From a virus (lineage: Duplodnaviria; Caudoviricetes), in the IMG/VR virus record IMGVR_UViG_3300034388_000038, positions 1 to 59,034 of that record: a stretch of DNA of 59,034 nucleotides; one strand, 5' to 3'. A program made the position numbers and the translations under genes. How positions within the stretch are numbered: the first letter of the stretch is position 1; every line of letters starts with the position of its first letter. Below the pieces are notes generated by a model. It was not told the DNA's origin, did not search any database, and worked only from the letters and a program-made list of their open reading frames with translations. Below, piece after piece: positions 26,850 to 29,800 of the stretch.

Positions 26850-29800
26850 TGGCGACCGAACTGACGGACTACCTCCTCCAGCGGCTCGGACCGGGAACGG
26901 CCGCTCCTTCGGCTACGCCAATTTCCCAGGCGGTGGCTTCACCTACTCAGCCCGCCACGGCTCCTGCTGCTCCGGCCGTTCCTGCTGCTGACCCTCTCCA
27001 GCAGGCCCTCGCGAATATCGAGGCGACCCGGCCCGCGGCTCCGCAGGCTCCGGTTGAAGAAGCGGGTCTTCTGACCAAGCTCGGGTACGTTCCAGCCGTC
27101 GCCGGCGAGGCGATCCAGAGGGCTACGACTGGGGCGCTCAGCTCGGGTCTGACTGCGGCGCAGGAATTCCTCGGTGGTACGTACGAGACCAAGGGCGCAG
27201 CCGGCCGGGACTTCGCCGATGCCTCGATCGATTGGCTGGATCGGCAGACCCAAGACTACTCTACGCTGGACGACGCCGCCCGGGCGTACGGCATGAGCCG
27301 AGACGGTGAGATTTTCAAGATCATCCGTGATACTCCAGCGTCCTTCGGTACGTCGATGCTGTCGACCGGAGCCGGTCTTGCAACTCAGGCTGGGCTGCGC
27401 GCTGCTGGTGTTCTCGGTACAGTCCCGACGGCGGGGGCTTCGAATGTGGCGGCTGCCATCGCAGCTCCGATCGCTGGTGCGGCGGTGTCTTCGGCGGTCA
27501 TGTACGCAACGACCAAGGCCGACACGCTCAAAGACCTGCTGAACGCCATGAACGAGGCGACCTTCGAAGCTGAGGGGCGCTATCTCGATGACGCTGAGAT
27601 CGCGCAGTACACCAAGCAGTTCTCCGATGTCGCCGACCGCGTAGCCAAAGCCGAGATCGGTACCGAGGCGGCGAGCACCCTGGTCCAACAGGCCCTGCTT
27701 CCGAAGGCTGGGCGACTGATGCGCCTGAACCCCGGCGCTGCGGCCTCTCTGCTCAAACGAATCCCCCTAGTAGGCAAAGCCGCGCAGACTCGACTGGGCC
27801 AGATGGCGGGCATCATCGCTGCGGACCTCCCCTTGGAACTGGCCGGCGAGACCGCGGCCGAGCGTATTCAGTCTCAGCAGTTGGCCGAAGCGACCAAGGG
27901 TACGAGGATCGAGCAGCCGTTCGCGGATAACTATGCGCCGGGTATGGCCGGTAACGTCGAGGCGTTCAAGAACATCGCTGGCGTCACGACGGCACAGACT
28001 GTGGCAACCGTCGGTCTGACTGGCGGGGCGAACATCGTCAGCGACAAGCTCCGTGCCTGGCGGGAAGAGATCGCCAAACGTAATGCCCCGGCTCCGCCGG
28101 CAACGCCCCCGGCGGCCGGGGAAACTCAGGAAGACGTTGCTCCTACCGCTGAGCCAGCCGCTCCATTGCAGCTTGCCACCCGGTGGCAGCAGGATGTTCG
28201 TGCTGCCGCTGAGATCGAAGCCCCGCTCCAGAAGCAGATGGCCCGCGCCGCCGCAGAGAAAGCTGGTAAGCCGTTTGATGAGGCCGCGTTCGACGCACAG
28301 CTGACCGCGGTTCGTAATGGCGAGGATGACGGCCGGGCGTTTGAGGCGATGGTCGAGTCGCTCTCGGTTGGCCGAGACAAAGGCCCGGTGGTTAAAGGCC
28401 AGCCTATCGCTGAACTGGTGAAGCGCGCCAACACCATCGATCCTGCACTGGGGAATGTCGTCGCCCGCTTGTTCATCGACAAGCAAGGCAAGAACTTCAG
28501 CGGTACGACCGCCCAGGTGGAAGTCGTAACCGAGTACCTCAACGAATTGGCAGGAGGGACCAATGCCCAAGCTCAGCAAACAGGAGTGGGTCAAGGCCAA
28601 AATCAAGAAGTTAATGTCGGAGGGCAAGCCCCAGAAGCAGGCGGTGGCCCAAGCGCTGTCAATGTGGAAGCAGGACCACCAACAGTAGACGCCGAGTTTA
28701 TACCTGAACCGCAGCGTACGCTTCCGGCGCCGGCCGCTCGTCCCGCTCTGCCACCCGGCGTCGGCACGATCAATCTTGGCGAAGAAGCGTCGACCGACGG
28801 AATGGTCTCCGAAGAAGTCGCTGCGGCGCAGGAAGACTTGAATCGCTTGATCGTAACCGAAGAACGCCCGATTCAGATGGTCAGCCAGACGTGGTTCCAG
28901 CGGTACTCTCAGTTGCCGGTCGAGCAGCTAGAGCCGACGCTGCGCCAGGTTCGGCGGATGCCGTTCGGGAAGGAGCGCACGCTTAAAGAGCAGGCACTTC
29001 AGGTCCTTATCACTCACCGTCTCGGTCCGAAGCGTGCTACGCCTGCCGCTCCCGCGCAGGCTCCGACAACTACAGCTGCCCCCTCCGCCTCCGGACCGAC
29101 GGTTGTGCCGCCGGTGACAAGCGCACCGCAGGGGGCCACTCCTCAAGCTCCGGCCGTCACGCCGCCGGCTGCTCCTGCTCCTGCTCCTGCTCCTGCTCCT
29201 GCTCCTGCTCCTGCTCCGAAGCCGAAGACCCAGAAGGAAGCGAAGGTCGCAGCGGCTCCGGCACCGAGACAGCCCGGTGTTCTCCCTGAATCGTGGGAGG
29301 ATTTCAAAGCAGCGTGGCTGGCCGAGGGCGACGGTCGGATTCTCGACGAAATGATGGAGCAGGCCCCCGAGACTCCGGCTGGCGATAAGTATATGGACAT
29401 GGAGCGTAATCCGTCGTACGCCGACAAGCTCGACAAGATGACGCTGGCCGAACTGCGCGCCGAGGAGGCTCGCCTTATCGAGAAGGCCCGGCAATCCAAA
29501 GGGGCGAAGCAGGACCTCATCAAGCTGGCCACGCTCCAGACCCACCCGAAGATGATCGAGGCCCGCAAGTCCAAGCCCACTCCGCCGCCCACGAAACCGG
29601 GAGGTGGGCCTACCGGGGGAAAGCCTAAGCCGGCTGCCCCTGCGGCGCCGGCTGCTCCCGCTGAAACTGCGCAGCAGAAGAAAGCCCGTGAGCTATCCGA
29701 GCGCGCCACCGCGCAGTTCAACGCACTGGGCAACGAGGGTACGGTTACGATCACCGCGGCCGAAGCGCCGAAGACTGGCATGGTCGCCAAGGTTGTGGCG

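Follow-up and report, generated by a model that had tools for sequence, protein, structure and literature searches.

A complete small phage gene embedded, one base out of frame, in a giant putative virion-protein gene: probable dual coding

The DNA analysed here is a 59,034-nt stretch of a tailed-phage genome (Duplodnaviria, Caudoviricetes; positions 1 to 59,034 of IMG/VR record IMGVR_UViG_3300034388_000038), hereafter called the window. The locus under study consists of a giant open reading frame (ORF) and a short ORF nested within it, with the following features.

26849..34177, plus strand: giant ORF P0002 (2442 aa), at the end of the structural module, with terminase and major head genes upstream
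28527..28529, plus strand: TAA, the closest stop of the nested (+1) frame on the 5' side, leaving 11 codons open before the nested ATG
28553..28557, plus strand: GGAGG, a Shine-Dalgarno-like site 5 nt 5' of the nested ATG; part of Gly-Gly in the host frame
28562..28687, plus strand: host reading of the nested DNA as a Gly/Gln/Ala-rich linker (residues 572-613), where GC3 of the giant gene is lowest
28563..28688, plus strand: nested gene, 41 aa plus TAG, ATG start, frame +1 of the host, phrog_2423-like family

As listed above, the whole inner ORF lies within the outer one, in another frame and with a start signal of its own. The spacer between GGAGG and the ATG at 28563 is gacca (5 nt), and the stop TAG occupies 28686-28688. 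The original prediction had described GGAGG, 5 nt and then a 41-aa ORF in the +1 frame, and its coordinates, frame and peptide were all reproduced. When GGAGG followed by ATG 4-9 nt on was counted on both strands of the window, 35 sites were found vs 13.35 expected in Markov-1 random sequence, and 5 nt was the most frequent spacing (14/35). Scaled from the window-wide Markov-1 count, chance would place about 0.8 such sites in the giant gene, so the GGAGG-ATG signal taken alone is weak evidence for a nested gene. The signal is nevertheless consistent with the habit of this genome, in which GGAGG with 5-nt spacing is commonest, and there was little local RNA structure: the MFE fold left GGAGG at 28553-28557 unpaired, and its surroundings were less structured than shuffled versions (z +1.8). 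A scan of 28000-29000 returned 0 promoters and 0 terminators. Contigs from two other runs matched the window without differences, X2 over 28538-28781 and X3 over 28394-28582, and an assembly error at the nested ORF was therefore excluded; both contigs being identical to the window, they yielded no population variants.

The codon usage of the two frames was then compared. Host-frame GC3 over the nested span was 0.286, against a giant-gene mean of 0.745 (sd 0.123), and this value was the minimum among 2402 segments of 42 codons each in the giant gene. The minimum began exactly at host codon 572, which is the nested start, and GC3 of the nested frame was 0.857, bearing out the predicted contrast between A/T-ending codons in the host frame and G/C-ending codons in the +1 frame. 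Codon usage and homology together supported the nested frame as the native frame of the 126-nt segment. Elsewhere in the giant gene, stretches of the +1 and +2 frames resembled frame junk, except for a GC3 dip near 30374; a second nested ORF in this gene (30393-30560) had no PHROG match.

The 41-aa peptide matched phrog_2423 with an E value of 9.3e-7, residues 5-35 falling on profile positions 7-37 of 52, and the motif EGKPQKQAVA.ALS was common to the peptide and the phrog_2423 proteins. A phmmer search against 1,835,955,588 proteins gave 18 matches at E<=0.001, the top one with 43 bits and 64% identity and most of them 56-66% identical to the nested peptide, including free-standing proteins (41-69 aa) as well as in-frame modules of larger proteins. 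These results showed that the likeness to small basic phage proteins noted in the original prediction is real, and that free-standing homologs, the lack of which would have told against it, exist. A family HMM built from 11 relatives, with the query left out, scored the nested peptide at 71.5 bits (E 2.7e-21) and matched just one of the window's 1518 six-frame pieces, indicating that the nested ORF is the sole copy of the family in this 99%-complete phage. The family consensus fitted over the full length of the peptide, and its ATG lies where free-standing members start, in agreement with the claim that a whole gene with its own Shine-Dalgarno site sits inside the giant ORF. In a 12-sequence alignment, I14, E20, G21, Q26, A27 and A29 were invariant, and this core motif was present in the nested peptide, which was predicted to form a two-helix hairpin (helices 6-19 and 24-40, pLDDT 89.5). 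Judged by the homology statistics of phmmer and the family HMM, the nested ORF belongs to the phrog_2423-like small basic phage proteins, and a chance ORF is ruled out. With the 41-aa peptide, a word-index protein search gave no candidate, the index being too coarse for this length, and a Pfam search gave nothing below E 0.1. A PDB profile search returned rows at E>1 only, Foldseek found nothing in the PDB at E<=0.001, and no paper was found by a full-text literature search for DUF6496 or by a literature search on this small-protein family.

Across other phages the family occurs in several layouts. At 66 of 80 viral loci it was an in-frame ORF of <=110 aa (separated layout). The family gene comes after the coat gene in MW202867 and between terminase and portal in MW202483, as had been claimed for free-standing homologs in phage head regions, and RSB1 ORF47 is also free-standing, at the right end of its genome, 3' of the terminase and lysis genes. 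The module formed the in-frame C-terminus of 310-646-aa ORFs at five viral loci (L009, L013, L029, L034 and L056) and an internal in-frame domain of other large proteins at L005 and L069; its in-frame fusion partners include a head maturation protease and large virion proteins. An overlapped layout was found at L035, and the embedded layout in this window and at L066, whose homolog is matched by 392 phage records. Apparent spanning ORFs at L071, L048, L050 and L010 were rejected as junk or as chance extensions, on the upstream side, of the frame of the following gene. The phrog_2423 proteins ORF47 of Ralstonia phage RSB1, the PB1 small ORF and the N-terminus of ORF28 of Acinetobacter phage AP22 share with the nested peptide the motif, size class, basicity and location in the structural module. 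Such proteins are free-standing or in-frame modules, whereas the window's copy, also 41 aa and in the structural arm, lies out of frame within another gene's ORF.

With regard to the host protein, P0002 residues 1669-2405 matched phrog_11358 (E 3.2e-39), and its C-terminal ~700 aa show a relationship to giant proteins of other phages that carry the RefSeq label 'DarB-like antirestriction'. In tblastn, P0002 was 23-27% identical to Skulduggery, Atu_ph08, POI1126 and others, with 27 records at E<=1e-10 that covered <=29% of its length. This C-terminal part is what the host ORF has in common with the DarB-like or polyvalent giants (Skulduggery gp28, Atu_ph08 gp21), which likewise lie at the end of the structural module in phages of ~60 kb. 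Gene position and annotation labels suggest that the host ORF would be a virion or polyvalent protein. In the stretches examined of two cultured phages with related giant genes, a nested family copy was found in 0 of 2.

Unlike the C-terminal part, the N-terminal 1600 residues of P0002 have a sole known relative, P0006, a 2620-aa protein from a different assembly that is about 46-49% identical to P0002. The linker core (P0002 579-600) was 18/22 identical in P0006, compared with 62/172 (0.36) and 11/37 (0.30) in the flanks. The residues of P0006 permit a best-case +1 peptide of 78.1 bits on the family matrix, while the best +1 peptide elsewhere in P0006 reached 22.6 bits (2082 positions scored, mean -14.2, sd 12.0). 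At the host residues that differ, the family motif remains readable in the P0006 +1 frame, as a best case at the protein level; the nearly invariant Ser33 cannot be Ser there, according to codon options read by hand rather than by script. Core host residues that would be free to vary through nested wobble were all conserved in P0006 too, and the conservation of the core could come from low divergence of the segment rather than from selection. At the protein level, the embedded arrangement appears to be old and to have been kept in this relative. Positions 27800-29400 had no blastn match in the phage collection, and no related loci were found in viral, metagenome or genome contigs with P0002, P0006 or alignment A1.

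A second clade with the embedded layout was found at L066. Here a 56-aa homolog (phrog_2423 E 2.4e-21) is nested in a 2032-aa ORF, in the same relative frame as in the window, and BLASTP showed this ORF to be without similarity to P0002 (best E 0.79). The homolog lay inside an open host frame at 31 of 32 L066-related loci, the remaining locus not covering the site. A comparison of 25 distinct 117-nt cores showed 8/5/23 of 39 sites to be variable at positions 1/2/3 of the nested codons, and mean amino-acid identity on the same DNA was 0.924 for the nested frame and 0.735 for the host frame; the conserved nested N-terminus starts at the ATG. These patterns point directly to purifying selection on the nested frame in the L066 clade, and in the window's lineage the same selection may act, judging from the protein level. 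By these comparisons, embedding recurs in two giant ORF lineages without detectable mutual similarity.

All these results suggested that the 126-nt segment is likely a complete ancestral small gene lying one base out of frame in a giant gene for a putative virion protein, with both products predicted. Ribosomes translating the giant ORF would turn the segment into a flexible, Gly/Gln-rich linker joining the N-terminal ~570 residues to the rest of the protein, and the 41-aa protein would come from other ribosomes that initiate on this late mRNA at the internal GGAGG-N5-ATG. The same DNA thus probably encodes two proteins, and their production is indirectly suggested by the conservation together with the nested-frame selection in the L066 clade. 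The small protein would most likely act in head or virion assembly, or be a small internal head protein, because the module has a head maturation protease and large virion proteins as fusion partners and occurs as a free-standing gene in head modules.

Two routes could have led to this arrangement: an upstream gene may have lost its stop, so that it was read through the small gene into a downstream gene, or the small gene may have been inserted into a linker of the giant gene, in line with the capture proposed in the original prediction. In L066, the end of the N-terminal part resembled the protein's own C-terminus with a score of 67 (mean 21.7, maximum 38). The same fusion signature was sought in P0002 and showed no resemblance (score 23 vs shuffle mean 21.7). 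Fusion across a retained small gene would therewith find positive support in the L066 clade, and neither route appears supported in the window's lineage. A search for split forms of the giant protein, as shorter proteins with residues 60-700, found none and was uninformative on the origin.

Alternatively, the small gene could be an untranslated relic swallowed by the giant ORF, in which only the host linker matters and the nested ORF persists through short time or by chance. Elongating ribosomes can occlude internal starts within translated ORFs, which speaks for such a relic, as do the 18 of 22 core host residues conserved in P0006, which could reflect linker constraint or low divergence. However, at the level of identity between P0002 and P0006 the host codons of a relic should have approached the norm of the gene and its nested ORF should have decayed, whereas host GC3 is still the minimum of the gene, the nested ORF, ATG and Shine-Dalgarno site are intact, and P0006 still allows a 78-bit family peptide. 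The L066 clade varies at nested third positions with a poorly conserved host reading, and the phage has no other copy of the family; we therefore consider a relic unlikely.

A programmed +1 frameshift between 28530 and 28562, ending at TAG 28686, would instead give a ~560-aa N-terminal protein with the module at its C-terminus, and is still less probable. The same architecture does exist in frame at the five viral loci described above, 11 codons of the +1 frame are free of stops 5' of the ATG, and SD-like sites, such as the one just upstream, stimulate +1 shifting in prfB. Yet 28530-28565, read by eye, contained no X XXY YYZ slippery heptamer and no shift-prone codon followed by a stop, hungry or rare codon; the ATG stands where free-standing homologs start, and the conserved nested N-terminus in L066 also begins at its ATG. 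Such a frameshift would in any case add an extra product, compatible with separate initiation. It is scarcely credible that an indel pair from assembly or sequencing shifted a domain out of the host frame to which it belonged, or that the frame is open by chance. The module is known as an internal in-frame domain of large proteins (L005, L069), which would fit an indel pair, but the contigs of the two other runs do not differ from the window across the span, the host frame reads likewise in P0006, which stems from a different assembly, an ATG and a stop of its own delimit the module, and the homology statistics exclude chance.

Dual coding by an embedded small gene, the reading preferred here, bears on how giant polyvalent proteins are assembled out of neighbouring genes. 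Since inner genes are skipped by gene callers, a widespread, uncharacterised head-module family would go unseen in exactly these phages. The L066 lineage, with ~30 sequenced variants and clean nested-frame selection, offers a data set on the maintenance of dual coding in dsDNA phages, and a testable lead to what the family does comes from the proteins to which its module is fused (head maturation protease, large virion proteins). A more far-reaching and rather doubtful possibility is that the small protein serves giant ejected virion proteins as a dedicated partner in assembly or capsid targeting, and that embedding was selected, having evolved at least twice, as it would couple synthesis on one mRNA and block separation by recombination. 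On this view, the head protease or large virion proteins that carry the module in frame elsewhere would be cargo joined to it by plain fusion.

The arrangement can be compared with classical overprinting (reviewed in PMC8227390), in which a new frame arises de novo within an old gene. In both, two frames of one DNA are used and the younger frame is atypical and of low complexity, but the polarity is reversed in the window, where the short nested frame is old and the long host reading is novel. The nested ORF was accordingly rejected as a de novo overprinted gene, its homologs being free-standing in many phages (with the 392 records that match the L066 homolog) and its GC3 native. The usual overprinting story would thus run backwards here, a giant ORF having grown over an old conserved gene, which it reads in another frame.

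There is also a close likeness to embedded two-component spanins, in which, according to excerpts of PMC6139136, a larger phage gene wholly contains a small one that has its own start and is read in the +1 frame. The same excerpts describe separated, overlapped and embedded spanin layouts with an inner gene missed by gene callers, and give stop-codon loss with read-through over a downstream small gene as one proposed route to embedding. As far as that source describes them, lambda Rz/Rz1 and T7 18.5/18.7 have an embedded +1 inner gene with its own start, as in the window, and the phrog_2423-like family shows the same three layouts. The pairs differ in their products: the inner protein of the window is predicted to be a basic helical hairpin of cytoplasmic type, whereas that of the Rz/Rz1 type is a lipoprotein, and its outer protein is a putative virion or polyvalent protein of 2442 aa rather than a 150-aa partner. 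Unlike the Rz/Rz1 type, the window has a low-complexity linker as the host reading of the overlap, and its two products have no known functional pairing. With these differences, the case is a further form of embedded phage genes such as Rz/Rz1.

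As the original prediction stated, a 41-aa ORF lies in the +1 frame of the giant gene behind GGAGG and 5 nt, with sequence, coordinates and frame all in agreement. The features, in a 59,034-base virus record whose completeness was rated 99%, are as follows.

26849 to 34177, + strand: giant host ORF, encoding the probable virion protein P0002 (2442 aa)
28527-28529, + strand: TAA closing the nested frame upstream
28553-28557, + strand: GGAGG, SD-like, 5 nt upstream of the nested ATG
28563 (ATG) to 28686-28688 (TAG), + strand: nested ORF encoding P0001 (41 aa), +1, one base off the P0002 frame

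Because of the TAA, at most 11 open codons precede the nested ATG. Contigs from the sediment metagenome runs X2 (28538-28781) and X3 (28394-28582) showed zero differences across the nested span, so the frame relation is not an assembly error; contigs from run X1, possibly from the source sample, likewise agreed there. At a Pro-Ala repeat coding stretch further downstream (29159-29230), X1 contigs break and reads seem cut, and the assembled repeat may be of uncertain length.

GGAGG occurred 141 times on both strands of the window, against 158 expected under a Markov-1 model, and was followed by ATG at 4-9 nt in 35 cases against 13.35 expected. The majority of these 35 sites precede real ORFs, and 14 have the 5-nt spacing seen at 28563. 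Scaled from the Markov-1 figure, about 0.8 such sites would be expected by chance in a 7.3-kb gene, and the GGAGG-ATG pair by itself is not strong evidence. RNA around the nested start folded less than shuffles (z +1.8; 196 of 200 shuffles equal or better), with the SD unpaired in the predicted MFE fold. A scan of 28000-29000 revealed no promoter-like or terminator-like internal sites.

Homology is, by sequence comparison, the first decisive sign that the nested ORF exceeds chance. P0001 matched phrog_2423, a family of small basic phage proteins (E 9.3e-7), and phmmer against 1.84 billion representatives returned 18 proteins at E<=0.001, the top one at 43 bits and 64% identity. With a family HMM of 11 relatives, P0001 left out, the nested stretch scored 71.5 bits (E 2.7e-21), and the same HMM found no second copy among 1518 six-frame pieces of the window. 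By these PHROG, phmmer and HMM results, P0001 is a family member and the phage's only copy. The proposed likeness to small, free-standing phage proteins was upheld by the peptide search: the 18 relatives include 8 of 41-69 aa, 5 of 107-221 aa and 5 of 464-981 aa, the large ones carrying the module near the N-terminus or internally. P0001 fitted the family consensus, K..W[VI]s.KIKKL..EGKPQKQAVAIALSMW, over its whole length and starts where free-standing members start, in line with the proposal that a whole gene with its own SD sits inside the giant ORF. Family genes in other phages include the following.

MW202867: free-standing, directly downstream of a P22-type coat gene
MW202483: free-standing, between terminase and portal
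Ralstonia phage RSB1 ORF47: free-standing, at the genome right end
JF974286.1 and NC_020847.1, 23517-23645: unannotated match
JF974321.1 and NC_020857.1, 6615-6743: unannotated match

The unannotated matches (E 1e-6, no annotated feature beneath) are in Prochlorococcus podophages MED4-184 and MED4-117 and are probably small genes. Using P0025, the homolog from viral locus L066, tblastn reached 392 phage records, chiefly Pseudomonas PB1-like and Acinetobacter phages. Across 80 viral loci with relatives, the in-frame ORF was at most 110 aa in 66 and longer in 14, 5 of the latter being 310-646 aa with the module at the C-terminus. In Acinetobacter phage AP22 ORF28 (L160 1501-2826; 441 aa), labelled head maturation protease in RefSeq, the module forms the in-frame N-terminus; other records of the AP22 group place this stretch under a separate hypothetical protein, with or without the protease. 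Large module carriers also matched phrog_220 (minor head protein and DNA pilot) and phrog_36695 (virion structural protein). This genomic company points to a role in head or virion assembly. AlphaFold modeled P0001 confidently as a two-helix hairpin (pLDDT 89.5); sequence and fold searches gave no solved relative, and literature searches found no publications on the family.

The second decisive sign is codon usage. The host frame had been described as a low-complexity linker with A/T-ending codons and the nested frame as G/C-ending, and this was borne out: the host reading is a linker rich in Gly/Gln/Ala, and GC3 over the nested span was 0.286 in the host frame vs 0.857 in the nested frame, the P0002 gene as a whole having about 0.744. 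The value of 0.286 is the minimum of all 2402 42-codon windows in the giant gene and falls exactly at codon 572, the nested ORF start. The second lowest value, 0.36, lies at codon 1176 (30374-30560), where another nested gene, a 55-aa +1 ORF at 30393-30560, had been proposed; this ORF overlaps the GC3 dip, no PHROG match was obtained for it, and the host residues over 30374-30560 showed no special conservation in P0006, the sole relative of P0002.

P0006 (2620 aa, on a 58-kb contig) was the only relative of P0002 in 5.8 billion clusters, with about 46-49% identity (46% over P0002 residues; 49% by the aligner), and scans of contig collections found no DNA-level relatives of either. In the linker core, P0002 residues 579-600, 18 of 22 residues were identical, whereas the flanks gave 62/172 (residues 400-571) and 11/37 (614-650). 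A free linker would be expected to be conserved least of all, which was not the case here. Since host residues determine the first and third positions of every +1 codon, a permission score was computed as the family matrix (without P0001) maximised over all synonymous codon choices. P0006 residues 618-650 reached 78.1 bits, a best case at the protein level only, vs a top of 22.6 elsewhere in P0006 (2082 windows, mean -14.2, sd 12.0); as positive controls, P0002 scored 93.5 vs 25.2 and P0026, the L066 giant protein, 62.4 vs 34.4, at their own site and elsewhere. 3' of the core, the host residues of P0002 and P0006 diverge while the +1 frame still permits the family QAVA.AL.MW. By this best-case test of permitted peptides, a shadow of the nested gene appears to be kept in P0006. 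A second low-complexity patch, Ala/Pro/Ser-rich (P0002 residues 741-766; 29069-29146), stands out from the weakly conserved linker around it with at least 80% identity to P0006; the frame scan of the giant gene gave no evident alternative-frame gene there.

L066 supplied a second nested case. P0025 (56 aa; L066 4977-5147; phrog_2423 E 2.4e-21) is nested, in the same relative frame as P0001, in the ORF of P0026 (1988-8086; 2032 aa), which had no similarity to P0002 by BLASTP (best E 0.79). The related set comprised 32 loci (L085-L116), including L066's own contig and two loci on one contig, from 35-45-kb phages with nested genes of 52-56 aa. The small gene was present in 31 of 32 (30 complete, one truncated by a contig end; the site lies outside the other locus), and the host frame was open across it in 31/31 (stretches of 1050-2629 aa, some contig-end limited). 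SD-like GAAAGGAAAG stood upstream of the nested ATG in 28/31. Among 25 distinct 117-nt cores, 8, 5 and 23 of 39 sites varied at nested codon positions 1, 2 and 3, so the third position of the host frame is the least variable; pairwise identity from the same DNA averaged 0.924 between nested proteins, compared with 0.735 when the host frame is read. These patterns argue directly for purifying selection acting on the nested frame in this clade. L096 and L099, on one 44,050-base contig, are two different L066-type giant genes, each with its own nested variant; the contig may have been assembled as a chimera or concatemer of two related phages.

P0026 residues just ahead of the nested gene resembled the P0026 C-terminus (score 67, as against a mean of 21.7, sd 4.2 and maximum 38 for 500 shuffles); behind the nested stop there is an in-frame ATG. 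This likeness and the ATG suggest a fusion of two genes over the small gene, supporting a putative origin by stop loss and read-through in L066. At L035 (3277-3835), nearly all of the small gene is overlapped in the -1 frame by an upstream gene whose stop comes 16 nt short of the small gene's end, a possible intermediate towards embedding. The giant-ORF frame was stop-free in only 5/66 small genes, and in 4/16 with GC3 of 0.6 or more; embedding therefore depends on a sequence that allows it, which GC-rich phages more readily supply. As P0002 has no repeated C-terminal motif before the nested gene and no split relatives of it were found, insertion into a linker is as possible as stop loss in the window lineage.

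Together, the comparisons indicate that P0001 is a real family member, out of frame within a giant gene, in a layout that recurs in another phage clade. We consider it probable that late mRNA would give the giant protein, with the nested segment acting as linker, and the same mRNA the 41-aa protein via internal initiation at GGAGG-N5-ATG. That the nested ORF is a relic, now untranslated, is unlikely, being a poor fit to a codon-usage contrast and signals still intact at such divergence. A +1 frameshift product, after the manner of the C-terminal-module proteins, is more doubtful again: the sequence shows no evident shift site, and the family's start position coincides with the ATG. An artefact is hardly credible, as it is excluded by the X2/X3 contigs, the phmmer and HMM homology and the P0006 alignment. 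Alongside the favored translation of both frames, the nested arrangement in the window is probably kept by selection.

Among known proteins, P0002 resembles giant DarB-like antirestriction proteins (RefSeq label) over its C-terminal ~700 residues (23-27% identity); in two cultured phages with such giants, the stretches examined contained no nested copy (the Atu_ph08 gene being partly covered). The nearest known system is the embedded Rz/Rz1 spanin pair. For spanins, PMC6139136 describes layouts that are separated, overlapped or embedded, notes that gene callers overlook the inner gene, and gives loss of a stop codon as one way in which a gene becomes embedded. Geometry and range of layouts are common to both cases; the proteins and the host size differ, and the two products of the present case are not known to pair functionally. 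Since its nested frame is the older of the two, the present case falls outside classical overprinting.
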